In this document: one piece after another, positions 35,472-54,716 of the stretch
Numbering within the stretch: position 1 is the stretch's first letter
Layout of the letters: each line of letters starts with the position of its first letter
Origin: an uncultured Clostridia bacterium
GTDB taxonomy: Bacteria > Bacillota > Clostridia > Christensenellales > UBA1242
NCBI GenBank assembly: GCA_944350095.1
Contig: CALVOB010000018.1
Location: 1 to 58,445 of the forward strand
Direction: 5' to 3'
DNA: 58,445 bases
Program-made: the position numbers and the translations under genes
The notes under the pieces: generated by a model
Databases searched by the model: none
Seen by the model: the letters and a program-made list of their open reading frames with translations, nothing else
Told to the model about the DNA's origin: nothing

Positions 35472-38381
35472 TTATTTCCAAGCAGAACCATTCCACACAT
35501 AAGTTGTAGAACCATTAGTAAGTTTAATTTTATTTGTCATTGAACTTCCAATAACACTTGAAGTAAGTTTGGTTTTAGCAGTTCTAATTTGTCCGCTTGC
35601 AACTGTTATAACAGTTGGAGTTTTTGTTGAAGCATCGGTGCAAAAGGATTCAATACCTAAGGTTAAATTATTCCAGTCTACAACATTTGTCATGTCTATA
35701 TTAATTAATCCACTGCAACCATAAAAGGCATAAACATCTATTCTTATTACTCCTTCTGGAATATTTATACTACTTAAATTTCTACAATGATAAAAGGCTC
35801 TATTACCTATACTTTTTACTCCTTCTGGCAAACTTATGCTACTTAAATTAGAACAATAAGAAAAGGCATACTCACCTATACTTGTTAACTGGCTGTTTTC
35901 ACCAAAAGTCACGCTACTTAAATTACTGCACTTATAAAAGGCATACTCACCTATACTTGTTACACTACTTGGCAAAATTATGTTAGTTAAACTACTGCAA
36001 GAAGAAAATGCACTAGAACCTATGCTTATTCCACTGTTTGGCAAAGTTACGCTAGTTAAATTACTGCAAGAAGAAAATGCACTAGAACCTATACTTGTTA
36101 CACTATTTGGCAAACTAACGCTAGTTAAAGCATAGCATTTATAAAAAGCATACTCATTTATTTCAGTAGTTCCAGCTTTTATGTTTACTTCTTTAATACT
36201 TGACCTATCTATTGGTGATAATGCTATATATGTTCCATCATCATTTTTATAGTACTGCATTCCATATTCTTTTATTATTTTTGTTTGTTCATCTGTAGTA
36301 TGTATTACTTTTTCATAACTAAAATAACTTGAAACATTTAAACCTGTATAGTTATATACTTCTGCTAGGGCATAGCAATAATTAAAGGCAGAAGAACCTA
36401 TCTCTTTTACACTGCTTGGCAAAGTTAGGCTAGTTAAAGCGTAGCATTCATAAAAGGCATATTTGTTTATCTTAGTTGTACTATCTTTAAAGGTTATTTC
36501 ATTTATTGTATTTCTATTGCCATATGTACCTATTGCTATTATATCTGTGCCATCATCATAATACTGCACATTGCCATTTCCTGATATTTTAGATGCTGGC
36601 TTTTCATCTCCTACTTTTAAGTTATGTATTTTTAATGCATATTGCCCTAAATCTCCAACACTAGAAGAACCATCTAAAGTTAAACTTGAATAGTTATATA
36701 TTTCTACTAGTGCATAGCAACTATCAAAGGCAAGAGTTCCTATACTTGATACAGTACTTGGAATTGTTATGCTACTTAAACTAGTGCAACTAGAAAAAGC
36801 AGAAGAACCTATCTCTGTTACTCCTTCTGGTATATTTATGCTACTTAAACTACTGCAATCCCTAAAGGCAGAAGAACCTATCTCTGTTACTCCTTCTGGT
36901 ATGTTTATGCTACTTAAACTACTGCATTGATAAAAGGCCTTATAACCTATACTTGTTAACTGGCTATTCGAACCAAAACTCACGCTACTTAAACCACTGC
37001 AACCATTAAAGGCACCATTACCTATACTTTTTACTCCATCTAGAATTGTTATGCTACTTAAACTACTACAATTATAAAAGGTATAATTACCTATACTTTT
37101 TACTCCATCTGGAATTGTTATGCTACTTAATAAACTACTGCAATTATAAAAGGCATGCTCACCTATACTTGTTACTCCATCTGGAATATTTATGCTACTT
37201 AAACTACTACAATTATAAAAGGCATAATCACCTATACTTGTTGCTCCATCTGGAATTGTTATGCTACTTAAACTACTACAATTATAAAAGGTATAATCAC
37301 CTATACTTGTTACTCCTTTTGGAATATTTATGCTACTTAAACTATTGCAATTATAAAAGGCAGAACCACCTATGCTTTTTACACTTTCTGCTATATTAAT
37401 TGAGGTCAAATCTTTGCAACTATAAAAAGCATAGCTATCTATCGTAATTATTCCATTTTGAATTATAATATTGCTAGAAGGTGCCAAATCTGTAAATCCG
37501 CTATTAGGTATTGAAGGTTTTTCTGGAAGTCGTATAATATTATGATTATTTATCACACCGACAAAATTTGAATTACTATCCATTGTTTTTATTGCTGTTA
37601 TAGGAGTTCCATCAAAATACATGCTCGGCACAACCAATGTTTCAGGTTTTTCTTCTAAATTTTTATATGTATCTGATAATCCCGTTACTGCTGTATGGTC
37701 AGAACTGTAAGTAAAATAATCATAATTTATCGTAGGAGGAACAAATACCTCAAAATTTACATCTATCGTTAAACTTTTGTTTGTAAATGATGATGAAAAG
37801 TTTGTTAACTTCATTGTTATTGTATATGTTCCTGTTTGGGCTGTTTCACCATTATAGCCACCTATTGTTAAAGATGAAGATGTTTCTTCTATGTTTACCT
37901 TTCCTTGAACATCTGTATCTTGTAAAAAGGTGTCTTTATTTGTGGTTATTGTTGCTTGGATATCTTTCTCTGAATAGTTTGTAAATGTTAAACTATATCT
38001 TATTATGTTTTCTTCTTCACTAAACTCTACATTCCCTATTGTCCATGCTGTCATAGTACCATTTGATGATGTTCCTACTGGCGCATCATTATAATCTGTT
38101 GTTTGAGTGTCAGTTTCCTGTTCTTCATCTACTGCGTCATAAGAATATCCTATGTAGTAATAGTCTGAACCCTCTGGTTCTTCTGCTCTTGTAGGTTCTG
38201 TGGTATCATTACCCTTTAAAACTTCACCTTTTACTTTTACATAAACTCCGCTAGCCTCAAAGCTTACACTACTTGTTACATTTAAACCTACTTGGCTTGC
38301 TGATAGTACGCCTACTATCATCATACATAGGCTTGCACAAAATGCTGTTAGTGTACCTATTAACTTTGCTCTCTTCTTCAT
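35472..38381 (-). CDS. BspA-type leucine-rich-repeat surface protein (969 aa) with N-terminal TM anchor
   Basis: Dozens of about 23-aa units, SIG..AF..CSSLSSI.IP.GV. The N-terminal 215 aa are paralogous to the 300-aa protein at 47120-48022. Confidence 0.85.
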   Translation of the reverse strand: MKKRAKLIGTLTAFCASLCMMIVGVLSASQVGLNVTSSVSFEASGVYVKVKGEVLKGNDTTEPTRAEEPEGSDYYYIGYSYDAVDEEQETDTQTTDYNDAPVGTSSNGTMTAWTIGNVEFSEEENIIRYSLTFTNYSEKDIQATITTNKDTFLQDTDVQGKVNIEETSSSLTIGGYNGETAQTGTYTITMKLTNFSSSFTNKSLTIDVNFEVFVPPTINYDYFTYSSDHTAVTGLSDTYKNLEEKPETLVVPSMYFDGTPITAIKTMDSNSNFVGVINNHNIIRLPEKPSIPNSGFTDLAPSSNIIIQNGIITIDSYAFYSCKDLTSINIAESVKSIGGSAFYNCNSLSSINIPKGVTSIGDYTFYNCSSLSSITIPDGATSIGDYAFYNCSSLSSINIPDGVTSIGEHAFYNCSSLLSSITIPDGVKSIGNYTFYNCSSLSSITILDGVKSIGNGAFNGCSGLSSVSFGSNSQLTSIGYKAFYQCSSLSSINIPEGVTEIGSSAFRDCSSLSSINIPEGVTEIGSSAFSSCTSLSSITIPSTVSSIGTLAFDSCYALVEIYNYSSLTLDGSSSVGDLGQYALKIHNLKVGDEKPASKISGNGNVQYYDDGTDIIAIGTYGNRNTINEITFKDSTTKINKYAFYECYALTSLTLPSSVKEIGSSAFNYCYALAEVYNYTGLNVSSYFSYEKVIHTTDEQTKIIKEYGMQYYKNDDGTYIALSPIDRSSIKEVNIKAGTTEINEYAFYKCYALTSVSLPNSVTSIGSSAFSSCSNLTSVTLPNSGISIGSSAFSSCSSLTNIILPSSVTSIGEYAFYKCSNLSSVTFGENSQLTSIGEYAFSYCSNLSSISLPEGVKSIGNRAFYHCRNLSSINIPEGVIRIDVYAFYGCSGLINIDMTNVVDWNNLTLGIESFCTDASTKTPTVITVASGQIRTAKTKLTSSVIGSSMTNKIKLTNGSTTYVWNGSAWK
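36714..37448 (-). repeat. Tandem 69-bp (one 72-bp) near-identical coding repeats
   Basis: The period is visible directly in the DNA and in the antisense ORF 37046-37399. It corresponds to LRR units at about aa 312-556. Confidence 0.85.
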
Positions 38382-38630: not shown

Positions 38631-38684
38631 ATTCTACCCCCGCATTTTTCAAACAAACGAATATTTTTTTTGAAAAAATATTCG
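38631..38684 (-). promoter_or_regulatory. Poly-G (G5) cassette homologous to the 48111-48138 promoter, plus a 12-bp AT hairpin
   Basis: Minus strand reads AAAAATGC-G5-TAGAAT. CGAATATTTTTT/AAAAAATATTCG is at 38658-38684. Lies about 250 nt upstream of the LRR gene. Confidence 0.4.
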
Positions 38685-38897: not shown

Positions 38898-39185
38898 TTA
38901 ATCTTTTTTATCTTCAATTTCTACTATATTTTCTTTGTCTTTTTCTTCTGAATTTTTTTGGTTAATTTCTGTTTCTTCTGTGTTTTCTTCTGTTTCTTTT
39001 TTATTTGGCATTGTAACTATTCCAAATACAACTAAAACTCCGCAAACAGACATTATTATATCAGATATTAACTCTTCTTGTACTTCTACTCCAAAGCACT
39101 TTGTTATAGACTGCACAAGTATTACTACCGCACCAGAAAGTGCCGTCCAAAATCCATACGATTTTATTCTATCTTTAAATTTCAT
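38898..39185 (-). CDS. Holin (phi LC3 / Phage_holin_1-like)
   Basis: KDRIKSYGFWTALSGAVVILVQ..FG..VVFGIVTMP pattern, two TM helices, charged C-tail. Confidence 0.6.
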   Translation of the reverse strand: MKFKDRIKSYGFWTALSGAVVILVQSITKCFGVEVQEELISDIIMSVCGVLVVFGIVTMPNKKETEENTEETEINQKNSEEKDKENIVEIEDKKD

Positions 39186-39411
39186 TTAATTTTTTTCCTT
39201 TTTTCTTGGGCATTATTATAACTTTTTTTATTTCACAAATATCTTCTTTTATATCTTCAACGATATCTAAATGATGTGAAAGTTTTTTAATTGCGTCTTG
39301 ATATTTTTCTTCCCGCTTTTTACTATCCTTAATTTGAATAAATAAAAGTGATACAAAAAGTATGGCAAAAATACCATTACTTATAATAATATTAATAATA
39401 TCTTGCCACAT
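39175..39411 (-). CDS. BhlA/UviB-family holin-like protein
   Basis: Single N-terminal TM (GIFAILFVSLLFIQIK), then DSKKREEKY and a helical tail, as in BhlA/UviB. Confidence 0.5.
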   Translation of the reverse strand: MWQDIINIIISNGIFAILFVSLLFIQIKDSKKREEKYQDAIKKLSHHLDIVEDIKEDICEIKKVIIMPKKKGKKLNEI

Positions 39412-39413
39412 AA

Positions 39414-40283: not shown

Positions 40284-40382
40284 TTTTTCTCCTTTTGCAT
40301 TTCTCTTAAATTTAAAATTTCTGGACATTTTTCATAAAAATTTTTTCTTTTAAACCTTTGTATTTTATAATAAATTTCTAAA

Positions 40383-41888: not shown

Positions 41889-42451
41889 TAAATCCACCTC
41901 CTAGATGGTAATCTTATTTCGCTTTTTTTAGAATAGGCTTCTTTTAGTCCACTATAAAATCTTGTTTCCCATACTTCTGCATCATCATAAAGCCCTGTAA
42001 TTAAACAAAATTCCATTGCTATGCCATAAGCAAGAACTCTATCTTGAATTTTACCGCCAAACATGAAAACTTCGTCTTCAAATGATAACTCTTCTGGAGC
42101 GTAGCTATATGTTAATTGTGCACAAAGAACATTTGCATGAATTCCATCTTCTTCAAGAGAATATGGTATATTTTTTCCATTGGCATAGAGTTTTCTAATT
42201 TCTGTTATGGTTTTTGACAATTTGTTATAAGCAAGCACCCCATCTATGAAAACAACTTGTTCAGTTTTTATAAGTGGAATATAAGCAGTAGCTATTTCAT
42301 TATAAACAAGGTTAAAACATTTTTTTAAATGTTCTATTTCTGTATTTTCAAGAGTTGGAATTGTGGTTTGCTCACCAAATGGAGAATATATAAGCAAATC
42401 CTCCCTGTTTAAAAACATTAACGCAAGTTTTAATATTTCCTTAACTTTCAT
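41888..42451 (-). CDS. Head-tail connector/adaptor-like protein (187 aa)
   Basis: Called from position and size, plus an N-terminal MKVKEILKLALMFLNREDLL pattern reminiscent of gp6-like connectors. Weak. Confidence 0.35.
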   Translation of the reverse strand: MKVKEILKLALMFLNREDLLIYSPFGEQTTIPTLENTEIEHLKKCFNLVYNEIATAYIPLIKTEQVVFIDGVLAYNKLSKTITEIRKLYANGKNIPYSLEEDGIHANVLCAQLTYSYAPEELSFEDEVFMFGGKIQDRVLAYGIAMEFCLITGLYDDAEVWETRFYSGLKEAYSKKSEIRLPSRRWI

Positions 42452-42710
42452 ATACTCCTCTCTTTCTATTTTCTTCGTCTAGTTCTTTTAATAATCTATC
42501 CCGATTTTCAACACGGGTTTGATTAACAAAATCTATTGTACGAGAGTCTAATTCATCAAAAGGAACAGTCAGACAATATGTGTCTGACTGCCCACTGTGA
42601 TGAATTTCATACTTTTTCTTTTTCGTGTTATAGAGGATAAAATATTTGAAATCTATCTCTTTTAGCCTTTGGCTGATGTAATAAACATCATTTTTTATTT
42701 CAATTAGCAT
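42441..42710 (-). CDS. Hypothetical phage-module protein (89 aa)
   Basis: Strong AGGAGGAG RBS and translational coupling to the next gene. Confidence 0.5.
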   Translation of the reverse strand: MLIEIKNDVYYISQRLKEIDFKYFILYNTKKKKYEIHHSGQSDTYCLTVPFDELDSRTIDFVNQTRVENRDRLLKELDEENRKRGVYES

Positions 42711-42731
42711 TTTTCTCCTCCTATTTTTAAG

Positions 42732-42810
42732 GCAAGGAAGTGCCGACTTTAAAAAGTCGGCTGGCGATGAAATCGCCTAAAAATTTTTACAAAAATTTTT
42801 ACTTCCTTGC
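42732..42810 (-). repeat. Four-way-junction palindromic element (subfamily II copy) abutting the capsid stop codon
   Basis: Outer GCAAGGAAGT/ACTTCCTTGC encloses GCCGACTTT/AAAGTCGGC, GGCGAT/ATCGCC and TAAAAATTTTT/AAAAATTTTTA. Confidence 0.7.
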
Positions 42811-44046
42811 TTAATTTCCTGCGTTAGTTTCTTGAATAGCAGTAACAATATCACTAAACGGACTAGAAACAGTAGCAGATATATTAGAAATTTTAGCCTG
42901 ACCATTAGGTCTATCGCAAATAAGGTCTGCGTATTTAACAAGAGTAGCTGAATATGTAGGATAACCAGCGTTTTGTTTGATAACTTTTCCGTCGTCACCT
43001 TCAAGCCATTTCCAGTCGCAAAGTTGATGAAGTGTAAAATCATTAGTATTAAGTAAATACATAGTTCCATCTTCAACAAATCTATCTGCAACAACAGGAA
43101 TACCGTTGTAAGTTATAGCTTTATATCCACCGCTAAGCTCACAAACATCTATGTTTCTTCTAAACTTAGTTAAATAATCTTGATAAGCTCTTCTAACCTT
43201 TGTTGAACAAGAAATAAAGTTTACTTCACTTCCGCTAGCCTGCTCTAAGAAATCTATTGCATCTTGAATTAAAATGTCAGAAATTTCTGTAGCAGTGTTA
43301 GAAACATAAGGGTTAAGCCAAGGATATTCGCTTTTTGTTAAACCATAAAGTGTAGCATCAGCACCAAAAATAGCACCTAATCCTGTAATTTCGTATCCCT
43401 TAGAATTTTGAACATAAATTTTAGAACCGCTTGCAATGCTAGCACTAAAAGAAGATTCAAAATCTAAATAAATCCTTTTGTTAGTTCTATCCACAAAAGT
43501 AACTCTATATCCACTTGCATCTTCAATTTTAGAATCTGCATTATAAATATCTACAACCATACCTTCTATAAAATTTCTTACATCGTCCATTTGAAGATAT
43601 TTTTCAGAATTAGAATAAACTTTTGTTGTTGTTCCAAGAAGACCTGTACCATCACCATAAAGCATTCTTCCAAGATTAAAACTACTAGCTTTTATTAAGC
43701 CTTCCATTTCATCATTAAGTAAATTTACAAATGCACCTGCATTATTTGCAGAAGCTCTAATAGCCTTATCAGAAATTTCAATTTTTCCATAAAGGTTTTT
43801 AAGTGATGTTTTGAATTGAACATAATTATTCCCCGCAGCCTTTGGAAGAGGGTCTGTTTCGTCACCAGCACCTATACCGCCGTTAATACCATAAGGTGCA
43901 AGTTTAATAATTTCTTTTCCCCACACATCTTGTGAAGATTGTTTAATTTTGCCAAGAAGAGGATTAGCATTTATATTAAGTTGATTTGCAACAACTCCAA
44001 GATAAACACTTTTTAACGCCTCGTTAGCACTTGAAATTGAAACCAT
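42811..44046 (-). CDS. Major capsid protein (HK97-fold candidate, 411 aa)
   Basis: Lies directly after the scaffold gene. Size and the LYGKIEISDKAIRAS..A.V..L..E..GL......N..R.LYGDGTG pattern resemble phage capsid families. Confidence 0.7.
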   Translation of the reverse strand: MVSISSANEALKSVYLGVVANQLNINANPLLGKIKQSSQDVWGKEIIKLAPYGINGGIGAGDETDPLPKAAGNNYVQFKTSLKNLYGKIEISDKAIRASANNAGAFVNLLNDEMEGLIKASSFNLGRMLYGDGTGLLGTTTKVYSNSEKYLQMDDVRNFIEGMVVDIYNADSKIEDASGYRVTFVDRTNKRIYLDFESSFSASIASGSKIYVQNSKGYEITGLGAIFGADATLYGLTKSEYPWLNPYVSNTATEISDILIQDAIDFLEQASGSEVNFISCSTKVRRAYQDYLTKFRRNIDVCELSGGYKAITYNGIPVVADRFVEDGTMYLLNTNDFTLHQLCDWKWLEGDDGKVIKQNAGYPTYSATLVKYADLICDRPNGQAKISNISATVSSPFSDIVTAIQETNAGN

Positions 44047-44055
44047 AATTTTCTC

Positions 44056-44658
44056 CTATTTAAAAAATTTCTCTACAATTTTTTTAGCATCATTTAAATT
44101 TTTAGGGTTAAATTCCTCTTTTGAAGAAAGTTTAGCCCCGTTACCACCAGAAATTACAGGCGGAGCAACTTTTAGTTCCTTTAAATAGCTTTGCAAAACT
44201 TGTTTTTTAATTTCTTCATTATTAAAAACATAAGAATTTAAAAAGGTTTTATCACTAACCAATTTTTCTGGTTCAACATATTTTTTCATGGCTATGCTAG
44301 ACCATGCAAGTTCCAAAGCATTTTCTTTAGATTTTAGTTCAGAATTATTTAAAATCTCCTCAGAAATTTCTTTGGAATATTTTTTAGCCTCTGGATTTTT
44401 TTCTAAAAAATTGGCTACGCGTCTATTCCAATCTTCTTCATTATAGATAGTTTTATTTTTTTCATTTTCCAGAGCACTTAATTTTTGACACTTCTTAGTA
44501 AACTCTGCCTGCAAATTGTTATAGGCGTTAAGTAAACTTTGTGCGTCTTTAAATTTTCCAAGGGAGCCATCACTTTCAAGATTTGCTGTGCCACTAATGC
44601 AATCCTTTTGCACCTCACTATCAAGATTTGGTTGTTCCCTAATAACATTTTCTTCCAT
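44056..44658 (-). CDS. Scaffolding protein
   Basis: Acidic helical 200-aa protein between portal and capsid genes. Carries the GKFKDAQSLLNAYNNLQAEFTKK motif common in phage scaffolds. Confidence 0.55.
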   Translation of the reverse strand: MEENVIREQPNLDSEVQKDCISGTANLESDGSLGKFKDAQSLLNAYNNLQAEFTKKCQKLSALENEKNKTIYNEEDWNRRVANFLEKNPEAKKYSKEISEEILNNSELKSKENALELAWSSIAMKKYVEPEKLVSDKTFLNSYVFNNEEIKKQVLQSYLKELKVAPPVISGGNGAKLSSKEEFNPKNLNDAKKIVEKFFK

Positions 44659-46499
44659 TATTTATTTTCTCCTACTATAGATAAAATTTGTTTATGCGTT
44701 CTTATATGTTTTAAAAGCTCTTCTTTTTGTTTCTCTGTAAGTTCGTTAGCCAAATAAAATGATGTATGCTCATCTATATGCAAACTATGATTGTCTATCT
44801 CACAAGGCTCTGGCATACTTCCTTCTAAAAGCATAGCATTTTCTTTACTAGCTCTTTTTGTGTGTTGCTCATTTAAATCTTGTGAATTTTCCCAAATTCC
44901 AAACCCTAAAAGCTCCAATGCTTTTATTCTCATACGGTTACTTAATTTTCCGTTTTCGTCATGAAGAAGACCAGCATTTAAAAGTTCAAGCACCATACTT
45001 CTACGCTGAGCCAAGCTTTCATTTATTTCATTTTCTGTTTCAAAAACAACTTCATCAGAAGTTATATCAGCTGATGTAAAGTATAAAACTTCAAGGTCAC
45101 CATTTTCACCTACAATCTTTAAAAGTCTAGGAAGAGTAGCAAATTGTTTGTAAAGCCTTAAAACTTGTTGCGCCATTCTTCTTAGTGCCTCTCTAATATT
45201 TTCAGCCGTAACTGAAATTCTGGTTTCATCTTGGTCAATCAAAAGTTGAAGAGCCGTTCCACTTAAACTATTAGTTATTGTGCTATCATTTAAAATATCA
45301 GAAGTTCCACTAACCACAGTAAACTCATTTAAAAGCCTTTCTTCTTCATAAGTAAAATCTAACGGCACACTACCTGTGCTTAAATATTTTGGAGCAGAAG
45401 AACCTTGCCTATAAACAAGCACTTTGCCAGGACATAAACCTTCTTCTTCTAAATTTTCTGTATCCACAGAGCCATCTTCTACTGTTAAAATCCCCATAGA
45501 AAGTCTGTTTAAAAACTCGTGCTTTCTATTTTTGATTGCATTATAAGAGCGTTGAAGTGGAATAACTCTTTCCACAATGCTAGTTCCCCAAAAACTACCC
45601 GTTTGGTCACAAGCAACTTGTCTAATAAATGGGAATCCTCTTTTGCCATCTTCACCATTAATAAAAGGCAGTTCCCCAACATACAAAAGTTTATCCCCTG
45701 CAACTATAACAAGTCTACCATTAGGATATTTAATAGTTGGAGCTTCATATCGTTCGATTACTATTGCATAATTATCTCGTGAAGAAGATATAACCTTGTT
45801 TACATTTGTGTTATATCCAAGCCCACCCATATTTCTAGATACACCATCTAGTGAAAAAACATTTAAGGTTTCGCCTTTAACATCTACACCCCACTTATTT
45901 TTAATTTCGTCTACATGATAAGCTTTTGCATGAATTAAACTTCTACAATCCTCGATATTTGCACAATTTACGCTTTCAGGGTATATTTCAAAAGGAGATA
46001 CCGCAGTTATTTCGATATCTCCCATAGTTATATTTTCACCTTTATTATTTTTTGCTAAAAAATTTCCTTTTGCACTATTCCAAATAATTTTATAAAAAGA
46101 AGTTCCACAAATTTCGCTCCACTTTGTAGCTTCTGTAATTACATTATAAACATTTAATTTGTTATATATAGAATTTACAATTTTTTTAGATATTTTAGCC
46201 GTTTTAATATCTCTTTCATCTCCCGATGATGGAATAACCGTCATAGTAGGACGAACTCTTTGAAGTTTTGCCATTCTTCTTTCTATTAGCGGTGCTATGT
46301 GATTATAAACTTCATGTTCTTGCCAAAAAAATTGTTTTTCAAAGTCAGTAATTTCGCCGTTATAACCAATGCCACAATATTGATTACCCATAACAAAATT
46401 CATATTTAATTGCCACTGTGCTTCAAAACTTCTTTTTTCTTCTTGTCTTTTTTTAAAGTCTTCTATAACTTCATTTACTAATTTTTCTTCAACTTTCAT
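44658..46499 (-). CDS. Portal protein (613 aa)
   Basis: Called from synteny (upstream of scaffold and capsid) and size. TAATG stop-start overlap with the scaffold gene. Confidence 0.6.
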   Translation of the reverse strand: MKVEEKLVNEVIEDFKKRQEEKRSFEAQWQLNMNFVMGNQYCGIGYNGEITDFEKQFFWQEHEVYNHIAPLIERRMAKLQRVRPTMTVIPSSGDERDIKTAKISKKIVNSIYNKLNVYNVITEATKWSEICGTSFYKIIWNSAKGNFLAKNNKGENITMGDIEITAVSPFEIYPESVNCANIEDCRSLIHAKAYHVDEIKNKWGVDVKGETLNVFSLDGVSRNMGGLGYNTNVNKVISSSRDNYAIVIERYEAPTIKYPNGRLVIVAGDKLLYVGELPFINGEDGKRGFPFIRQVACDQTGSFWGTSIVERVIPLQRSYNAIKNRKHEFLNRLSMGILTVEDGSVDTENLEEEGLCPGKVLVYRQGSSAPKYLSTGSVPLDFTYEEERLLNEFTVVSGTSDILNDSTITNSLSGTALQLLIDQDETRISVTAENIREALRRMAQQVLRLYKQFATLPRLLKIVGENGDLEVLYFTSADITSDEVVFETENEINESLAQRRSMVLELLNAGLLHDENGKLSNRMRIKALELLGFGIWENSQDLNEQHTKRASKENAMLLEGSMPEPCEIDNHSLHIDEHTSFYLANELTEKQKEELLKHIRTHKQILSIVGENK

Positions 46500-46509
46500 A
46501 ATTTCTCCT

Positions 46510-46719
46510 TTAAATTTTGCTTAACCTTTTAGGTGAATAAGGTGCATCTAAGCTTCTTGGTATAATACTTCTTCCAAGCTCCTCAAAAAGCTCCTTTTTA
46601 CAATTTTCACAAAAGTGAATTTTAGGGCTAAATCGTTTTCTAGTAAAAAAGCAATATTTAGCCTCATTTTTACAACCCAGCATATCGCAAGTAGCCTTGT
46701 AAGAAATTTCTCTAATCAT
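46510..46719 (-). CDS. Small zinc-ribbon protein (69 aa)
   Basis: C..C(x)..FCENC cysteine pairs. Confidence 0.5.
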   Translation of the reverse strand: MIREISYKATCDMLGCKNEAKYCFFTRKRFSPKIHFCENCKKELFEELGRSIIPRSLDAPYSPKRLSKI

Positions 46720-47002
46720 AATCCTCCTCTTCTAAAAGCTTAATAAGTCTGTTGCGTTCAGCTTTTAATTCTTCATCAGTCATAAGTTCAATTTCTTCCC
46801 TGCTTAAATTTCCATATCTTTCAATTAAAATTTTCATAGCAGAGATATCAGGTGCATAATGTTTTTTAGTAACTTTCTTTTTGCAAAGTTTAGCAGTACC
46901 CTCTTCATCAAAGGAATACTCTTCAACAACTTCATCTGCGTCATATCCTAACGCTCTTTTTATCAAAGCCTTCTTTAATTTTTTCTCGTTAAATTCCTCC
47001 AT
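46712..47002 (-). CDS. Terminase small-subunit-like fragment (96 aa, no HTH)
   Basis: ALGYDADEVVEEY..KKKVTKKHYAPDISAMKILIE resembles the C-terminal half of Firmicute phage TerS proteins. From memory only. Confidence 0.35.
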   Translation of the reverse strand: MEEFNEKKLKKALIKRALGYDADEVVEEYSFDEEGTAKLCKKKVTKKHYAPDISAMKILIERYGNLSREEIELMTDEELKAERNRLIKLLEEEDYD

Positions 47003-47119
47003 AAAAAACCTTCTTAAATTAAAAAAGTTACCGCCGAAAATTTCCGCGATAACTTTAATTACCTATATTTTATTTTATAAATATAAAAAATTCAATTCCA
47101 CATGACAAAATAAGGTTTA

Positions 47120-48022
47120 TTACATTCCTTGACCGCCTGATGCTCCATCCTGCACAGTTTTTACTTTAGTTGTAATATTAAGTGTATAATCAACACCTTG
47201 AGTTAATTCAGGTACTACAAACTTTGTAATAAATATGTGCTTATCTGGAATCATTCCTCCATGAAAAGTTAAATCAAAGTCTGCTTGATCTGTAATTATA
47301 TCTCCTTCCCTAAGCATAAAGGGTTCAGATGTAGATAATGTTACTTCTTCACCATTAATAAAAACATTACTATGGTTTGAACCTGAAGATAGATACAATT
47401 CCGCATAAACAGGTGTATACTTTTCAAAAACAAATTCCGCATTAAGTTGTCTTTCTTCTCCTGTAAATGACTTTGTAAAATCATTTAATCTTATTGTTAT
47501 TGTATAAGTATAAGGGCTAACTGTTCCAGTATATGCTGGCAATATTATAGAACCTTCCTTACTTTCTATTACATTACTATCGCCAAATAAAGTTTTTAAA
47601 GCATATAAATTTATAGATTTTCTAACTAAAACTTCTGTTTCTGTGTAATTTGTAAATGTAAATTCATATTTTACTACATTCTCAGTAGTTGTAAATGTTA
47701 CATCTGTTCCTGCTGACCATGTTGCTTCTGTGCTTCCGTTGCTTGTTACAAATTTATCTGTTTGAGCACCGCTTGGCTTAGCGTCACTGTCGCTTACAGG
47801 TTTATATGAATATCCTTTTATATTAGATAAGCTTGTTTGGCTTGTTGCTGTGCCCTGTTTAATATCCCCTTGAAGCATTACATACACGCCCTCTGCTGTA
47901 AAAGATAGATTACTTGTAACATTAAAACTTACTGTACCTACTGCTAGCACTCCCACTACAAATAAACCTAATGTAAAACATAATGTGCTAATTAATGCTA
48001 TTATCTTTGTTCTTTTATTCAT
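47120..48022 (-). CDS. Membrane-anchored surface protein (300 aa), paralog of the LRR protein N-domain
   Basis: It shares several motifs with the 969-aa protein: VGVL, NVTS..SF.A.GVYV, GYSY, SNG...W..G..V.F..EN..Y..FTNY.E and YTIT..L..F..SF. Confidence 0.65.
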   Translation of the reverse strand: MNKRTKIIALISTLCFTLGLFVVGVLAVGTVSFNVTSNLSFTAEGVYVMLQGDIKQGTATSQTSLSNIKGYSYKPVSDSDAKPSGAQTDKFVTSNGSTEATWSAGTDVTFTTTENVVKYEFTFTNYTETEVLVRKSINLYALKTLFGDSNVIESKEGSIILPAYTGTVSPYTYTITIRLNDFTKSFTGEERQLNAEFVFEKYTPVYAELYLSSGSNHSNVFINGEEVTLSTSEPFMLREGDIITDQADFDLTFHGGMIPDKHIFITKFVVPELTQGVDYTLNITTKVKTVQDGASGGQGM

Positions 48023-48110
48023 ATATTTTTCTCCTGTTTTTATTTACTTATTATTATAACTTAATATTTTAAAAATATCAAATAAATATAATAAATAATT
48101 TTTACAAAAA

Positions 48111-48138
48111 AATTTACCCCCCCCCGCATTTTTGTCAA
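48111..48138 (-). promoter_or_regulatory. Promoter TTGACA-16 nt-TAAATT with a G9 tract inside the spacer
   Basis: Minus strand reads TTGACA AAAATGC-G9 TAAATT. It lies about 90 nt upstream of the 300-aa gene and just downstream of a terminator. Confidence 0.5.
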
Positions 48139-48198
48139 CTAAAAAACAACATTTTTCAAAAATTTTTTTATGCAACTTATTAATATTTTATTTTAAAT

Positions 48199-48239
48199 AA
48201 AAAAGCGAACCATTTAAGTATAATACTTTTGTGGTTCAC
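48199..48239 (-). terminator. Rho-independent terminator after the 1115-aa gene
   Basis: Minus-strand stem GUGAACCA/UGGUUCGC (one G-U, which would be a C-A mismatch on the other strand), followed by U6. Confidence 0.65.
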
Positions 48240-48267
48240 TTATTTTTACAAGTTTTAAATATAAATA

Positions 48268-51200
48268 TTAATAATAATCACTCATGAATCCTGCACTTCT
48301 AGATTTTCTTATAATTAACCAAATTGCTACGCCTAATATTCCAGCTCCACCAATTCCGCCTAATGTCCACCAAAGCCAATTAAGATTAGAACCCGCATCT
48401 TCAGCCTTCTCAATATTGGCTATCAACAAAAATTGCTGATTAGATGTTCTAAATGTTATTTCTTCATCAGAAGCAGATGAATTCTTTAAAAAACTTTCAA
48501 TTGGGTCTGATGTATTGCCCGCTTGCCAACCTTTAAATTCATAACCGTCTTTTACTTCTATCCTAATAATAACATCAGCATCTCTTGAAATAGAACCACT
48601 GAATACATAGTTATTTTCAGATGAATATTCATAAGGAACTTCATTTATGTAAATTGTTGCACAATTTTCTGTGCTTAATGAAGTTCTTACCGTCATATTA
48701 CATATTTGACTTGTAAAAATAGCTCTTAAAGTATAAACTTGGTTAATTTCAGTTGGCATTGGAACATAAAGATATGTGTTCCCTAAATTTTCACTTGAAA
48801 ATCTTATAGCAACTGACTGTCTTGCTGGTAGTCTAGTATCCTCATTGCCAACAGCAGTTTGCCCCAATTTTGCAGTTGTTAAAACCTCTTGTCCATCAAC
48901 TTCGGTAACCCAAACCCATTCTACAAATCCATAATTCTTAGCAGGAACAGCTTCAAATTCGTATAATCCTCCGCTAGAAACATTAATTTCTATCTTATCA
49001 AGTTCTTTTTGTGCCCCTCTAATTCTAACACCACCTTGTGCTAAATCCTGGCTTTCTACAACTAAATTATAGCTTATAGGCTCAGTTATAATAGTATATA
49101 GTCCGCTTGTAGAAGCATTCATTATAAATGTTACGCTCACCCCTGTTTCATCTTTAATTAATTCTAATGATTGTCCGTCTTTTTGAATGTTAGAAATTGC
49201 GTATAATAGTTCTTCACCTTCTGCAACTTCAGCTTTGATAGTAACAGTATCTCCAAATTTAACTAAATTTTCTCCTTCTTGAAAACTATCAGCTATTATT
49301 TGAGGACTTTGTTTCACATGTGTAGAATATGACAATGAAATTGTAAAGCTTTCAAAAGGTTGTAAAACAATATGTTCTTCACCTGCTTTTGCATACCATT
49401 TTTCACTAAAATTCCATGGATAGAATATTGTGTCCCACATTGATGAAGATACAAATGTGCTTTGTTCCCTAAAAATAGAAACATTAGAAACTTTTGTACA
49501 ACTAGTTAAAATATAGGTGGTTTCAGCTCCAATTAAATCATAACTTGAACTAGAAGCAGTATGGTTATATGCTATATTTCCAACAACAGGTAAATAAACG
49601 CCTGTTCCCATTTCACCAAAAAGTAATCCAACTTTTGGTGCAACATCATCATTTACAGTAACGCCATATATTTCGCCCGTTGCAAAATTATTTACGATTT
49701 TGCCTTCCCAAACAACTCCTACCAATCCACCTACTATTACATCGGTAATAGGCATACTGTCAGTAGTTAAGTCGTTTTTTACAACTTCCGCCCAAAGCAT
49801 TTTTTCTAAATTAGAGTTTGTGCAAAACACAAAACTATTTGAAATTTCACCCTCTACTTGTTTGCCAACAAGTCCGCCAACAACAATTTGACTTGCTGTT
49901 AAACTAGTACCTGTTGCCTTAATCTGTGCAGTTGAATAAGAATTGGAAATCTTTGTCCCTGTACTTGTTCCTACAATACCACCCGCTATTATTGATGTAT
50001 TTGCGTTTACTTCAATATAACCGCTTACTTCAACACTATCTATAATAGAGCCCTCGGCTGTGTGAGCAAGTAATCCAACGCTTGAACTTGATGTAAAAGT
50101 TGTCCAATCTTCAATTTTAAGATTCTTAATTGTCGCATTAGTAAGCCTATTGAAAAGACCGCCATTTTCACTTATTATAGAATTTTTTATATTTGTAATA
50201 TTAAAGGAATAATTGCTTGATTGAATATTTCCAAATAATGAATAAAATGTATAAGAAATTAACTCCTCTTCTCCTGCACTAATATATCCTATAATTTCGC
50301 TTGATGTTATTTTATTTTCCCCGCCAGCTGTACCTTCCACAACAAATGAATATCTTAATGGCGAAGAATTTACATTTTTTACATTTAATTCAAGTTGAGT
50401 TAAATTTTTTATTACAAAAGTATAGTTTTCTGGATTGTTCATAACATTTACATTATCACTAAAATATCCATTTGTTCTATTTGGATCTCCACCAATGTAA
50501 AATGAAATATCATGTTCTCCAGGAGCAAGAGTTATTGTAAATTCAGATGTACTATTTCCATCTTCCACAACCCCATTAACCTGAGCTTCCATTATTAAAT
50601 TTAAGGTTATTGCTTTGTCTGTATTATTTACAAACTTCTTAGAATAATCTGTTGGAATACATAACATATTATTTAAATTCTCAACAAAAACATAGTTTAA
50701 ACTTCCAAGTCCAAATTTTATTAAACCACTATTGATTATGTCACTTAAATTTATAAATGTTACCATATCGTTATTGATAGTATAATCAATTATTTCTGGT
50801 GTGTTTTCAGTATTTTCATATTCAATTTTTAATATATTACCTTCTTTGGAAATAGTAACTATTCTATTAGTTTCATTTAAATTTTTCAATACAAAATTGA
50901 AACTTTCATTTCCAAAGGAAACATTTAATGTTATTCCTCCAACATATCCATGATTTAATGTTGGAACAGTAAAATTTGCAGTGTTGTCATCTTGGATAAT
51001 TAGTGAGATATCGCTGTAATCAGAAACTCCATAATAATCATCTATATTTTGAGAACCAGATTCAACCGTTTTAATTTCTTCAACTATTAAAGAAATATTT
51101 TGATAGTTACTAACTACATCGTTATAAGAAATGCCTGTAAAAAGAGAAGAAATTGTGTTTGAAAGCTGAATATCACCTAAAATTGAATCTCTATTAAAAG

Positions 51201-51615
51201 TGTAAGAATTAGAATCAATAACAGTTTCACCACTAATTTGATACTTATATTTTAAAGATGAAATTTCTCTAAAAACATGCACTGAGTTAGTAATAACTCC
51301 ATCAGAAGAAGTAAGAATATTAGAACTTTGTCCTATTTCTAAATCCTGTCCTTGTGTTTGTTCAAGTGAAATAGAATATCCATTTCCATCTAAAACACCT
51401 GAAAAATTTATAGGCTTATAATCTGATGTTAATTTAATATCGCTAGCAAGATAATATGAACCTGTCGTAATTTTAGAAAAATCTTCTGCACTACTTATTG
51501 CTTCGCCAGCTGGCGTTTGAGCGCTTGCAGAATTATATGTATTATTAAAATTAAAAAAACTAAGCCCCAAAGTAGCTATACAAAAAACTAAAATTAAGCT
51601 AAATATTTTTTTCAA
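48268..51615 (-). CDS. GLUG-motif surface protein (1115 aa) with signal peptide and C-terminal TM anchor
   Basis: N-terminal signal (..SASAQ). Central GGLFN, AGGIVGT and VGGLVGK repeats. C-terminal WWTLGGIGGAGILGVAIWLII-RKSR. TTG start after GAGG. Confidence 0.75.
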   Translation of the reverse strand: MKKIFSLILVFCIATLGLSFFNFNNTYNSASAQTPAGEAISSAEDFSKITTGSYYLASDIKLTSDYKPINFSGVLDGNGYSISLEQTQGQDLEIGQSSNILTSSDGVITNSVHVFREISSLKYKYQISGETVIDSNSYTFNRDSILGDIQLSNTISSLFTGISYNDVVSNYQNISLIVEEIKTVESGSQNIDDYYGVSDYSDISLIIQDDNTANFTVPTLNHGYVGGITLNVSFGNESFNFVLKNLNETNRIVTISKEGNILKIEYENTENTPEIIDYTINNDMVTFINLSDIINSGLIKFGLGSLNYVFVENLNNMLCIPTDYSKKFVNNTDKAITLNLIMEAQVNGVVEDGNSTSEFTITLAPGEHDISFYIGGDPNRTNGYFSDNVNVMNNPENYTFVIKNLTQLELNVKNVNSSPLRYSFVVEGTAGGENKITSSEIIGYISAGEEELISYTFYSLFGNIQSSNYSFNITNIKNSIISENGGLFNRLTNATIKNLKIEDWTTFTSSSSVGLLAHTAEGSIIDSVEVSGYIEVNANTSIIAGGIVGTSTGTKISNSYSTAQIKATGTSLTASQIVVGGLVGKQVEGEISNSFVFCTNSNLEKMLWAEVVKNDLTTDSMPITDVIVGGLVGVVWEGKIVNNFATGEIYGVTVNDDVAPKVGLLFGEMGTGVYLPVVGNIAYNHTASSSSYDLIGAETTYILTSCTKVSNVSIFREQSTFVSSSMWDTIFYPWNFSEKWYAKAGEEHIVLQPFESFTISLSYSTHVKQSPQIIADSFQEGENLVKFGDTVTIKAEVAEGEELLYAISNIQKDGQSLELIKDETGVSVTFIMNASTSGLYTIITEPISYNLVVESQDLAQGGVRIRGAQKELDKIEINVSSGGLYEFEAVPAKNYGFVEWVWVTEVDGQEVLTTAKLGQTAVGNEDTRLPARQSVAIRFSSENLGNTYLYVPMPTEINQVYTLRAIFTSQICNMTVRTSLSTENCATIYINEVPYEYSSENNYVFSGSISRDADVIIRIEVKDGYEFKGWQAGNTSDPIESFLKNSSASDEEITFRTSNQQFLLIANIEKAEDAGSNLNWLWWTLGGIGGAGILGVAIWLIIRKSRSAGFMSDYY

Positions 51616-51692
51616 AATAATTACCTCACTACTTTATATTCTATCTAAATATAACACAATTATTTAAATTAACAAAATTAATTTTAAATAAT

Positions 51693-53120
51693 TTAATAAT
51701 ATTTTTTAGATAATTTTTTAATTAATTTTTCTTTATCTTTTTGAATGTCAGTTTTAAATGTTATTTTTTTAGGAATTTCAGGTCTGCTAATTATATAATA
51801 TCTAAGTTCATCTAAGGCATGGTCATCTTTTTTTACAGGATTATCCCCTTTACCCCAAAAGTATCCTTTTATTTCTCTAATTAAATTTGTGCAAGTTCTA
51901 AAAATAAAAAGTTTTGCCTTGCCCTCACCATCTTTTAAATAGCTTTTTACCCTTGAAATTCCAGCAAATAAATTTTTATCTACCTTAGGATTTGCTAGAA
52001 TTCCATTATCGTAAAAAAGTTCAACTACACTACGCTCAGCCGATAATGTCCTTTGAGTTGCTGCACTGTCTATTAAAGTAGAAATCATTCCATTACTAGC
52101 TCTGTGCCAATTTAATTTGTCTGATATTTCCTTTATTTTTTCTGCATGATAAATTATATCCCTTTTAGCTTCGTAATGCTCAGCAATTACATACACATTT
52201 CCATCATAATCTACAGCATACCAATGTGCAGACAACGGATTATTTAGTCCAGGGTCTATTGAAATATTATCTTGCCATTCATAAGGAATATCAAAAGGGT
52301 CTATTACATGAACATTTTCATCAAATTCACTATAAACTAAACCTCCATTAGCTGTAAATCGGCCATATTTTCTTGCTTCAAGCTCGCTTTCACTTAAAGT
52401 TGATGTTAAAAGTTTAATTTCATCTTTATCTAAAAAAGGATTATCTTCCCAATTCATTTGTTCGCACCAAATTTCAGGATTATTTTTTTCGTTTAAATAA
52501 ATTTCATTATAAACCCAAGTTAATCCTTTTAAAGGTGTCATAGTGCCAAATATATCACCTTTTTTATCAAAAACTCTCATTAAACATTCAAAGTATATAT
52601 CTTCTGGAGGTTCTTCATCAAACCAAACAAAATCTAAACTCGCACCTTGAAATTTATCTCTACCTTGGTCAGCACTTTTAAAATAAATTTTACTATTTAA
52701 TCCAGAAACATTTTTAATTATTATATAGTCTATAATACCACTTTCATATCCTTCTTTTCTCCCCTCAACCATGCAAACATCAACAATCCAATCAGCATTT
52801 AAATAATGCAGAATTTTACTTTGTGCAACTTCTCTTTGAACTTGTCTGGAAACAGAAACAACCCAACCTGTAACACACCTTTTATTTTTTCTGTATGGAT
52901 GAATTCCTCTTGCAAGCCAAATACATTCAACAGCTCCACATTCAGTTTTTCCGCTTCTATTTCCACCAAACACCCAACGATTTCTTTTTGGACATTTATG
53001 AAACAAAAGCTGTTTTTCATGGACAACTTTTCCTGTATTGTATCTATTTAAAGCGTTTTTAGAATATCGTTTTATAATTTCTTTATTTACTTTATCTAAT
53101 TTTTTTAATAACTCTTTCAA
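51693..53120 (-). CDS. terL: Terminase large subunit
   Basis: Walker A GGNRSGKT, Walker B LDFVWFDEE, C-terminal nuclease-like half. TTG start 7 nt after GGAGG. Confidence 0.85.
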   Translation of the reverse strand: MKELLKKLDKVNKEIIKRYSKNALNRYNTGKVVHEKQLLFHKCPKRNRWVFGGNRSGKTECGAVECIWLARGIHPYRKNKRCVTGWVVSVSRQVQREVAQSKILHYLNADWIVDVCMVEGRKEGYESGIIDYIIIKNVSGLNSKIYFKSADQGRDKFQGASLDFVWFDEEPPEDIYFECLMRVFDKKGDIFGTMTPLKGLTWVYNEIYLNEKNNPEIWCEQMNWEDNPFLDKDEIKLLTSTLSESELEARKYGRFTANGGLVYSEFDENVHVIDPFDIPYEWQDNISIDPGLNNPLSAHWYAVDYDGNVYVIAEHYEAKRDIIYHAEKIKEISDKLNWHRASNGMISTLIDSAATQRTLSAERSVVELFYDNGILANPKVDKNLFAGISRVKSYLKDGEGKAKLFIFRTCTNLIREIKGYFWGKGDNPVKKDDHALDELRYYIISRPEIPKKITFKTDIQKDKEKLIKKLSKKYY

Positions 53121-53139
53121 ATTGTGTCCTCCAAATTAG

Positions 53140-53224
53140 AAAGAGGCATTGCAATTTTGACTTCGTCAAAATTATAACTTGCTACTGCAAGTTATCTTTT
53201 GCAAGCAAAAGGCAATGCCTCTTT
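53140..53224. repeat. Four-way-junction palindromic element (subfamily I copy) upstream of terL
   Basis: 13-bp outer stem AAAGAGGCATTGC/GCAATGCCTCTTT encloses AATTTTGAC/GTCAAAATT, ATAACTTGC/GCAAGTTAT and CTTTTGC/GCAAAAG with zero linker nt. Confidence 0.7.
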
Positions 53225-53367
53225 GGTACGGGCGGAAATTTTGCAAAATACAAAAATAAATTTTTTTGCTTTGCTATATTTCTTACCACTTAAAAAAACG
53301 CAAAATTGGTATTTTTTAGACAAAAATATAAATGCCAACTTTGCACTAAAAGAATTAAAATTGTTTT

Positions 53368-54177
53368 ATGAAAATTTTATTGGTTATTGCATTAATTCTA
53401 ATAAATATTTTTACTTTTACTAATATGCCCGCCCAAGCCTCTTCGGACGAGATAATCTATGCACGAATAACCACAAACAATGTGTGTTTTTACTCTGCTC
53501 CATCGGAGAGTTCCGCCTTATTCTATATTCCAAATTCTTATTTTGTACAACTACTTGATAATGCTGGCGATGAATTTTACAGTGCACGCTATTCCGACCT
53601 ATTTGGATATGTGAAAAAAAGCGAAGTATCTCCTGTTAAAGGAAACCCTATAACCCCCTATGCAGAAAAAATTTCTTTTAGAGTTATATCGTTAAATGGT
53701 CTTGAACTTAGAAGCGTACCTAAAAGCACTTCACCATTTGAAATTGTTGACAATGTTCCATTTTTAGAAACAGACTTAGTTTACTATGGCACAATGTTAG
53801 GCGACTCCTTAGTTCCAGAATGCACAAATATTTGGTATTATTGTAAGTATCTAGATGGAACAAGAAGTTCAATGGGATATCTTTATTCTTTGTTTTGCGA
53901 CAAGTTAACAAATATTCCAACAAACACAGAAGTACTTGAAATTAGAACTGAACCAATATTTGTAGAAGAAGAGAATCCAGGCCCTAATAGTACTTTAAAT
54001 TTTTCCTCTCCTACACAAATTTTAATAGTAGTGGCAGTATGTTTGCCATGTTTACTTATAATATATCTTTTATTTAAACCTACTAAAATAGCTAATAAAG
54101 AAGTTGAGGCTAAAAATGCTAAAACTAAAAAGATAAAGCGTTTAAAAAGAAGCGATTATTACGAAATAGACGACTAA
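53368..54177 (+). CDS. Secreted SH3-like repeat protein with C-terminal TM anchor (269 aa)
   Basis: Signal peptide (..MPAQASS). Two segments resemble bacterial SH3 domains. C-terminal hydrophobic helix followed by a K-rich tail. Confidence 0.5.
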   Translation: MKILLVIALILINIFTFTNMPAQASSDEIIYARITTNNVCFYSAPSESSALFYIPNSYFVQLLDNAGDEFYSARYSDLFGYVKKSEVSPVKGNPITPYAEKISFRVISLNGLELRSVPKSTSPFEIVDNVPFLETDLVYYGTMLGDSLVPECTNIWYYCKYLDGTRSSMGYLYSLFCDKLTNIPTNTEVLEIRTEPIFVEEENPGPNSTLNFSSPTQILIVVAVCLPCLLIIYLLFKPTKIANKEVEAKNAKTKKIKRLKRSDYYEIDD

Positions 54178-54716
54178 TTCGCCAAAGATAGTTTTTTGTA
54201 GTCTCTTATAACCATATTTAAGTAATCATTATCTATTTTAACAAAATCATCATGCATAGCCTCTTTACCAACTTCAAATAACCATGTTTCGTCATGTAGT
54301 TCACTTTCAAGTTTTTCTTTTGTATAACCTAAATTTTCTGCTTCCATTGATGCCATTCCTAAGGCTTCATTAATTCTTCTATAGCAAGTGCGCTCAGATA
54401 TTTCAAAATGCTTTGCAATAGTTTTAATTGAATATCCATCTATAAATCTTAATATTAGTGTCTTTGCTAAGTTTTTATCTATATTTTTTGCAATTAAGTT
54501 TGCAAGCACTTTTAAATTAATAAGTGCCACTTTTTTTTGTGAAAGCTTTATTAAATTTTCAGTCAAATTATAAACATCGTTGTAGCTTACTGCACTGCCA
54601 CTCATAACTCCTGCATTTAAAGCCCTAGCCGAAAAAACTTTATCTATGGAGTCTATAATTCTTGGCAAATGTCTATAAACCATAAATATTGTTTTAATCC
54701 AAGTTTTTAAATTCAT
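54174..54716 (-). CDS. Sigma-70 region-4-like HTH protein (180 aa), putative transcription regulator
   Basis: LRFIDGYSIKTIAKHFEISERTCYRRINEALG resembles sigma region 4 and phage late-regulator HTHs. No region 2 was recognised. Confidence 0.5.
   Translation of the reverse strand: MNLKTWIKTIFMVYRHLPRIIDSIDKVFSARALNAGVMSGSAVSYNDVYNLTENLIKLSQKKVALINLKVLANLIAKNIDKNLAKTLILRFIDGYSIKTIAKHFEISERTCYRRINEALGMASMEAENLGYTKEKLESELHDETWLFEVGKEAMHDDFVKIDNDYLNMVIRDYKKLSLAN

Follow-up and report, generated by a model that had tools for sequence, protein, structure and literature searches.

A candidate poly-G promoter in a prophage cassette

We analyzed a stretch of 58,445 nucleotides (nt) from an uncultured Clostridia bacterium of the GTDB family UBA1242 (contig CALVOB010000018.1, positions 1 to 58,445), hereafter the window, which carries a minus-strand phage-like late module at 38.9-54.7 kb. 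Between the genes of this module that encode a protein of 1115 amino acids (aa) and one of 300 aa lies a promoter-like site, P1, whose spacer contains a run of nine G residues (G9; coordinates in Table 1). An earlier analysis of the letters alone, the original prediction, had proposed this site as a candidate phase-variable switch. Its reading of the minus strand from 48138 to 48111 as TTGACA, a 16-nt spacer with nine G and TAAATT was confirmed, as was its placement of the site: P1 lies 82 nt 3' of the terminator of the 1115-aa gene and 88 nt 5' of the ATG (48022) of the 300-aa gene, a distance previously given as about 90 nt. The spacer is made of the segment AAAATGC followed by the G9 tract, and the -35 hexamer together with AAAATGC forms a block, (GC)TTGACAAAAATGC. 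The tract does stand out in AT-rich DNA, being the sole run of more than five G or C in the whole window (about 29% G+C); there were two overlapping G8 matches in the window against 0.12 in dinucleotide-preserving shuffles, and the 18-mer TTGACAAAAATGCGGGGG has an expected count of 0.02.

A bare hexamer match carries little weight in the AT-rich window, where promoter-like sites number 12 against 12.2 expected in shuffles. A stronger promoter match, P2, which the original prediction had overlooked, lies only 30 nt downstream of P1. It is conserved in the comparison contigs (cited by L number where they must be told apart) L017, L018, the diverged L019 and L075-L078. The 300-aa protein had no match in Pfam, PHROGs or NCBIfam, its exact sequence has no database record, and a protein-pattern search of IMG/VR returned no relatives; five relatives were found in the protein database. 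An AlphaFold 2 model built from six sequences was weak, with a mean predicted local distance difference test score of 59, and Foldseek matches of this model to Gram-positive pilins had TM-scores of 0.13-0.20, which are not meaningful and were not used as evidence. The product is a putative surface protein, and its predicted family includes a BspA-type leucine-rich-repeat (LRR) protein. The view that the 300-aa gene lacks a convincing terminator proved wrong: the 117-nt gap between this gene and the 96-aa phage gene contains a hairpin with an 11-bp stem and a U-run, situated just 5' of the 96-aa gene and part of the shared phage backbone. Variants of the phage that lack the cassette described below have another terminator directly 3' of the 1115-aa gene, with this same hairpin next.

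The P1 core recurs within the UBA1242 lineage

Scans in which the flanks of the window promoter were fixed and the tract left free returned nothing from viral, metagenome and genome collections. When the right flank was relaxed to TAAA, a family was found in genomes and metagenomes; IMG/VR still gave no match with the relaxed pattern. Across 185,579 species genomes the pattern TTGACAAAAATGCGGGGG(0-10)TAAA hit 29 sites in only six metagenome-assembled genomes (MAGs). Core copies numbered nine in Candidatus Caccopulliclostridium gallistercoris, eleven in the 'uncultured Clostridia' E13__bin66, five in E07__bin144, three in BRZ_GA__bin74 and one each in E08__bin117 and the 'uncultured Firmicutes' SI.O36. 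A further 14 sites, two of them from unrelated organisms, came from the metagenome scan, and protein-guided look-ups gave eight more core copies. With the pattern matches L052 and L053 from unrelated organisms excluded from the family counts, the core TTGACA-AAAATGC-Gn-TAAAAT has 44 other copies, which belong to MAGs and metagenome contigs from a single lineage. Ca. Caccopulliclostridium has been assigned to the GTDB family UBA1242 (PMC8035907), and this lineage, whose genomes are smaller than 1 Mb, is considered dependent on other cells (PMC12306168). The chromosomal genes of the window share 66-98% protein identity (all but one at least 70%) and synteny with contigs of three of the MAGs, which places the window in this lineage.

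The assemblies suggest that genomes of the lineage carry about ten core copies each. Many contigs (L036, L038, L047, L048, L049, L054, L056, L063 and others) start or stop no more than a few dozen bases away from the core, so that the copy numbers per genome are lower bounds; such breaks are as expected if a repeated promoter, perhaps with tract heterogeneity too, disrupts short-read assembly.

The -10 hexamer reads TAAAAT in 42 of 46 copies. The invariance of TTGACA was built into the search pattern, and the hexamer sits in a wider conserved core. All family copies are intergenic and aimed at an open reading frame (ORF) on the same strand 70-700 nt downstream, and in 24 of the 28 readable cases this ORF opens with a leader of the form MKKRxKII..LC..L..GV.A...NVTS..F.A.GVYV. 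The leader is of the signal-anchor type, without a lipobox, and is common to the 300-aa protein and to the 969-aa LRR protein encoded elsewhere in the window. For relatives of the 300-aa protein, three of the four upstream regions read carry TTGACAAAAATGC-Gn-TAAAAT; one of these is L019, in which the flanks have diverged and P1 and P2 alone persist as conserved blocks. The gene of L049 has no sigma-70-like site 5' of it other than the poly-G site. In 377 kb of fetched DNA, every G run of at least seven (52/52) stands in a GC-Gn-TA(A/G)AA(T/G) context and none falls in coding sequence. Rfam revealed no known RNA at the window site or at 15 family loci, where only tRNAs reached the gathering score.

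On L058 an intact G8 core is followed about 190 nt downstream by a family gene reduced to a 17-codon stub (MKRAKMAIALSTCVLCL, then a stop), and the promoter has thereby survived its gene at this locus. The unrelated L052 carries TTGACAAAAATGC-G6-TATAAT (3915-3945) about 160 nt 5' of a gene whose product has an extended signal peptide of the autotransporter type (MNKVYKLVWSK...) and a second site, CTTGACAAGAAAACGC-G7, at 6537; this may be a poly-G promoter of independent origin or a chance match.

The G tract differs in length between orthologous loci

Spacer lengths in the 44 family copies were 12 nt (one copy), 15 nt (11), 16 nt (26), 17 nt (three), 18 nt (two) and 19 nt (one), and thus 15-17 nt in 40 of them. 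G8, G9 and G10 correspond to spacers of 15, 16 and 17 nt. Most tracts are G8 or G9, and every MAG mixes G8 and G9 copies. The original prediction had proposed a check of tract length across strain and metagenome variants, which in a comparison of contigs came out in part as anticipated: of seven orthologous sets, the tract differed in four, with flanks 91-100% identical, and was unchanged in three. The window and L017, which holds the same phage cassette, have G9 and G5 with flanks 95.5% identical upstream and 91.3% downstream; L022 and L062 have G9 and G5AG5 with flanks 100% and 99.6% identical. Near-identical flanks surround G9 in L041, L055 and L059 and G11 in L063, and likewise G12 in L034 and G9 in L051; a second tract in the leader of L041/L055/L059/L063 was read as G7, G8 and G9. 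The tract was unchanged between L042 and L064 (flanks 96.0% identical upstream, 91.6% downstream) and between L036 and L043, where the upstream sequence is the same (unquantified). At the locus adjoining rpsR, read in five samples with near-identical flanks, G8A was found four times and G9 once, and the spacer was always 16 nt. Judged from these comparisons, the G tract is clearly more mutable than its surroundings, though not at every locus.

P1 and the 300-aa gene form an accessory cassette

In 13 of 15 related IMG/VR phages, with portal proteins 42-59% identical to that of the window, the gene for the terminase large subunit (TerL) is directly followed by the 96-aa gene, or by the portal gene where no 96-aa gene was detected. 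Of the remaining two, L003 has a 732-aa relative of the 1115-aa protein at the same spot and L007 has an interrupted terminase gene. Related phages without genes between TerL and the 96-aa gene identify the 1115-aa and 300-aa genes as insertions (morons). The 1115-aa gene, which is kept in all variants of the window phage, is by this comparison an older moron between TerL and the 96-aa gene.

The exact 96-aa protein occurs on at least 23 contigs, ten of which were fetched for comparison of the cassette. Seven of them (L065, L066, L068, L069, L070, L071 and L074) match the window on both sides at 97.6-99.8% identity and carry about 88 nt with a different terminator in place of 47111-48265; they keep the 96-aa and 69-aa genes and, where the contig extends that far, the portal, scaffold and capsid genes. 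L072 shows a clean internal deletion of window positions 47237-48210, most of the cassette. The cassette is present in the window, in L017 and in L067, which retains the 300-aa gene on a contig that stops short of the promoter. At least ten metagenome contigs besides the window hold this same phage, and among them the cassette is an insertion/replacement (presence/absence) polymorphism in the phage population. Window positions 47397-48170, which span the promoter region and roughly the first two thirds of the gene, are 89% identical to the chromosomal gene adjoining rpsR on L018, and the sample of L018 also contains the portal gene of the window phage (L016). On this similarity, the gene family of the host itself was evidently the source of the cassette or its partner in an exchange. 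As expected of a moron, the 300-aa gene sits between conserved phage genes and is absent from close relatives, and it has its own predicted promoters, P1 and P2, and predicted terminators upstream and downstream.

Accessory motifs around the family cores

Many family copies bear additional motifs. In 22 of 44 copies the -35 block recurs in inverted form 57-82 nt upstream (GCATTTTTGnCAAGC versus GCTTGACAAAAATGC), and 11 of 41 have an inverted block about 100 nt downstream (GCATTTTTGTA); neither was found at the window P1. These inverted blocks suggest a bound factor or earlier rearrangements. In 16 of 45 copies (L022, L024, L027, L028, L033, L034, L041, L046, L050, L051, L055, L058, L059, L061, L062 and L063) a perfect palindrome of about 20 bp stands just after the G tract, with the last three Gs and TAAAAT in its 5' arm (GGGTAAAAT-X...X'-ATTTTACCC), a stability of -23 to -36 kcal/mol and an inner stem that varies compensatorily between copies. 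Such a palindrome after the -10 hexamer is absent from the window copy. We rejected these palindromes as terminators of P1 transcripts, as a start 6-9 nt after the -10 hexamer would fall within the 5' arm; a start at this position would make it more plausible that they stop upstream read-through, and they may insulate the promoter in this way or act at the DNA level.

Further poly-G modules, lacking a complete -35 hexamer, were seen in the 250-700-nt leaders of L024, L034, L041, L051, L055, L062 and L063, in the forms GC-G9-TAGAAT, ATGC-G7/8/9-TAAAAG and a full second core with GA-G9-TAGAAT. These leaders are mosaics of G+C-rich repeated segments in genomes otherwise of about 30% G+C.

Inverted repeats at the window P1 were limited to AT-rich arms about 70% complementary and a 10-nt pair 90% complementary. 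We rejected an invertible promoter (inverton) for the window copy, in the absence of credible flanking inverted repeats. Among the fetched copies no inverted promoter configuration was found with a search pattern that detects the 'on' orientation only.

Interpretation and alternatives

Our preferred reading, which we hold with modest confidence, is that the G9 tract is the variable part of the spacer in a sigma-A-type promoter by which this lineage phase-switches paralogous putative surface-protein genes. Replication slippage in the G tract would shift how far apart the -35 and -10 hexamers lie, the altered spacing would raise or lower transcription of the downstream gene in a heritable manner, and each of the approximately ten loci would switch independently, together making a contingency system, or 'phasome'. 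The reading builds on features taken directly from the compared sequences, namely the conservation of the core, its copy number and orientation, its link with one protein family, the differences in tract length between strains and the presence or absence of the cassette. Conservation, orientation and position point to the use of P1 as a promoter, and we infer that transcription would depend on tract length and that switching would be frequent and reversible. A further point in favor is that the host has a housekeeping rpoD. Two traits of the porA, tp0126 and vlp promoters discussed below were found in the family: a homopolymer of about seven residues or more between sigma-70-type hexamers (consensus TTGACA, 7 nt plus G8-12, TAAAAT) and tract polymorphism between strains with conserved flanks. 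The proposal of a candidate phase-variable promoter stands for the 300-aa gene, with 44 further copies and length polymorphism in its favor, and falls for the portal-to-capsid genes. In the window, P1 could act on the 300-aa gene only, probably as a modulation on top of P2 rather than as a clean on/off switch. The window copy makes a weaker case than the family, given its degraded -10 hexamer, the conserved P2 and the collapse to G5 in L017, and the phage-borne P1 may only modulate expression or be decaying. A more ambitious version, which we advance tentatively and with some doubt, comprises a UBA1242 phasome of about ten dispersed surface genes and a temperate phage that captured one host cassette and makes a stochastic lysogenic-conversion protein, with an extra layer of control in many copies from the inverted -35 blocks and from palindromes that bury the -10 hexamer.

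Several points weigh against slippage control by the G tract. The window -10 hexamer TAAATT, which has lost one A relative to TAAAAT, is unique within the family. P2 surpasses P1 in its match to the consensus and is conserved; expression of the 300-aa gene may be independent of tract length if P2 serves it. L017, the only other phage-borne copy with a readable promoter, has G5 and a 12-nt spacer with the gene intact, and P1 looks dispensable there from this arrangement. The nearest chromosomal orthologue, next to rpsR, keeps its 16-nt spacer in five of five samples, and the textbook optimum exceeds the modal spacer of 16 nt by one. Several comparison contigs have only 1.5-6.6x coverage, at which some one-base differences may be errors, and Illumina reads and assemblers are prone to miscount long G runs. 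The invariant AAAATGC segment and the inverted copies of the block, which a plain promoter does not need, hint at an additional bound factor.

Many of the same observations can be read to mean that the core, although descended from the host family, is a relic that is irrelevant in the phage cassette, P2 transcribing the 300-aa gene and G9 drifting. We consider this unlikely, albeit the most serious competitor. P2 agrees with the consensus at 11 of 12 positions and is conserved in all members of the 300-aa subfamily, including the diverged L019, the window -10 hexamer lacks an A, L017 has an intact gene, 91% identical, behind a G5 tract and a 12-nt spacer, and the cassette is missing from most variants of the phage. 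Against a relic stands the retention of G9, which is costly in a genome of 29% G+C and, if neutral, would be expected to shrink or be interrupted; the -35 hexamer and the AAAATGC segment remain perfect, G9 gives the modal 16-nt spacer of the family, and TAAATT retains the three most important -10 positions (T1, A2 and T6). It appears improbable that the site is not primarily a promoter and that the block GCTTGACAAAAATGC is instead the site of a regulator or recombinase, with the G run as spacer or hinge, so that the family would be controlled by that factor or by rearrangement and not by tract length. AAAATGC is as invariant as the hexamers (partly through the design of the search), and the inverted blocks upstream (22/44) and downstream (11/41) and the palindrome that embeds the -10 hexamer (16/45) would suit such a factor; yet these accessory motifs are all absent from the window copy, the -35/Gn/-10 core alone is universal, orientation to the gene does not differ among the fetched copies (under a pattern limited to the 'on' form), the hexamers and their spacing fit sigma-A, and L049 offers no other promoter.

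The original prediction had gone further and proposed that P1 could also drive the TerS-like, portal, scaffold and capsid genes. A shared transcript reaching the 96-aa, portal, scaffold and capsid genes and making particle production phase-variable is suggested by the common strand and close spacing, with only 117 nt from the 300-aa gene to the 96-aa gene, but we judge it very improbable. The strong hairpin and U-run terminator falls within this very gap, 13 of the 15 related phages have no insert between TerL and the 96-aa or portal gene, seven contigs of the same phage do without P1 and the 300-aa gene and have downstream genes 97.6-99.8% identical, and the phage has its own sigma-like late regulator 5' of TerL. 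A sequencing or assembly artefact, of the kind known for poly-G from two-color Illumina chemistry, was rejected and has next to no probability, as more than 45 independent contigs, drawn from many samples and built by several assemblers, have the tract with the same 13 nt on its left and TAAAAT on its right.

Other features of the window

The phage-like element measures only about 16 kb from the holin gene to the sigma-like regulator (38898-54716). Tail, integrase or replication genes were not recognized within it, and it may be a complete small phage, a defective phage or satellite-like. No near match to it was found among GenBank phages. The 969-aa LRR gene has a decayed second copy of the core upstream, and its product has the same N-terminal leader as the 300-aa protein. 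The longest homopolymer of the window is a T18 run that directly follows an ORF ending at 11611.

Table 1. Coordinates of the features discussed, in window positions.
Feature	Position	Strand	Remarks
Sigma-like regulator	54174-54716		5' of TerL
269-aa membrane protein gene	53368-54177	opposite	conserved; between regulator and terminase gene, likewise in related IMG/VR contigs
TerL	51693-53120	minus	terminase large subunit
1115-aa protein gene	48268..51615	minus	signal peptide and C-terminal anchor
Accessory cassette	47111..48265	minus	1155 nt; upstream terminator, P1 with G9, P2, 300-aa gene
Intrinsic terminator after 1115-aa gene	48199..48239	minus	hairpin and T6; left end of cassette; z = -4.3
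P1, -35 hexamer TTGACA	48133..48138	minus	perfect match
P1, fixed spacer part AAAATGC	48126..48132	minus	sequence read
P1, G9 homopolymer	48117..48125	minus	variable spacer part; candidate slipped-strand tract
P1, -10-like hexamer TAAATT	48111..48116	minus	degraded relative to family consensus TAAAAT
P2, TTGATA-17-TATAAT	48053..48081	minus	more canonical promoter; 11/12 consensus matches
Ribosome binding site AGGAG	48031..48035	minus	8 nt 5' of ATG; sequence read
300-aa gene	47120..48022	minus	N-terminal membrane helix and all-beta body; leader-sharing surface-protein family (predicted)
Intrinsic terminator after 300-aa gene	47018..47056	minus	11-bp G+C-rich stem and U-run; z = -3.4
P22-type portal	44658-46499	minus	96-aa and 69-aa genes precede; scaffold next
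Major capsid protein	42811-44046	minus	further genes beyond
Holin	38898-39185	minus
Decayed second core copy TTTGAAAAATGC-G5-TAGAAT	38631..38653	minus	about 250 nt 5' of 969-aa LRR gene
969-aa BspA-type LRR surface protein	35472..38381	minus	PF13306, E = 1e-182
dnaG	33289-35064		chromosomal marker
rpoD, housekeeping	32241-33296		chromosomal marker
T18 run	11617-11634		longest homopolymer of window

Comparison with known systems

If the preferred reading, slippage control of a promoter family by its G tracts, is true, an uncultured, genome-reduced lineage of Clostridia would vary its surface by a classical trick of small-genome pathogens, which would bear on the dealings of this lineage with its partners, with phages and with host immunity, and the simple signature TTGACAAAAATGC-Gn-TAAAAT could be used to follow about ten loci between their on and off states directly in metagenomic reads. 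The copy on the phage would mean that cassettes of this contingency type pass between the chromosome of the host and the prophage. The window itself is affected only modestly, with one accessory prophage gene whose expression probably drifts with tract length.

Phase variation in Firmicutes and gut commensals is known mainly as DNA inversion, and the invertons of gut bacteria and of Clostridioides difficile (cwpV, flgB, cmrRST) give stochastic on/off expression of surface structures in gut Firmicutes. Many copies of the present family resemble these in carrying inverted copies of the -35 block; the window promoter differs in that no inverted repeats flank it, no inverted form was observed and the variable element is the length of a tract. 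Promoters with a homopolymer in the spacer are textbook material for Neisseria, Treponema, Bordetella and Mycoplasma.

Among these, porA of Neisseria meningitidis and tp0126 of Treponema pallidum have a poly-G tract between the -35 and -10 hexamers, and the length of the spacer sets transcription, with 17 nt optimal (PMC7864442). They share with the present family a G tract in the sigma-70-type spacer of a (here putative) surface-protein gene and typical tract lengths of 8-11. Unlike the family described here, of about ten copies with an identical core in Clostridia and known from sequence, they are single loci of Gram-negative or spirochaete pathogens with measured expression, and the modal spacer here is 16 nt rather than 17. 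The T. pallidum tpr genes (tprE, G, J, F, I and L) have promoter poly-G tracts of 7-11, mostly 8-9, that vary within isolates and alter reporter expression, and a CRP homologue acts jointly with the tract (PMC7864442). The likeness here is that of a paralogous putative surface-protein family in which each gene has a variable promoter poly-G; in tpr the tract lies just 5' of the transcription start and not clearly between the hexamers, and the phylum is another, the genome is high in G+C and there is no phage link.

In organization a likeness may also be drawn with vlp of Mycoplasma hyorhinis, for which a poly-A tract in the promoter spacer of each gene is described (Citti and Wise 1995, cited in PMC10502178). 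Shared with vlp are a reduced genome, a (here putative) surface multigene family with near-identical promoters and leaders, and a homopolymer for each gene, which allows independent switching and combinatorial surface variation. The tracts of vlp are poly-A, and the genes encode lipoproteins and are clustered, whereas in the present family they are poly-G and precede signal-anchor leaders without a lipobox at dispersed loci, one of them prophage-borne.

That locus recalls morons of the lambda bor and lom type, in which a gene with its own promoter and terminator lies between conserved phage genes. The cassette shares with them its position between late genes, its absence from relatives and from most variants, its own promoters, the terminators that bracket it and a putative surface protein as product. 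Unlike the bor and lom morons, its promoter belongs to a host family of candidate contingency promoters with a mutable G tract, and over the promoter and the gene's first two thirds it matches a chromosomal paralogue at 89%. A moron with a homopolymer-spacer promoter is not known to us, but no literature search aimed at this point was made. The mechanism itself is known; what is new, by a non-exhaustive search of the open-access literature, is the Clostridia lineage, an identical core in many copies and the presence of one copy on a phage. If true, this would be, to our knowledge, the earliest description of a simple-repeat promoter phasome in Clostridia and of one on a phage moron.

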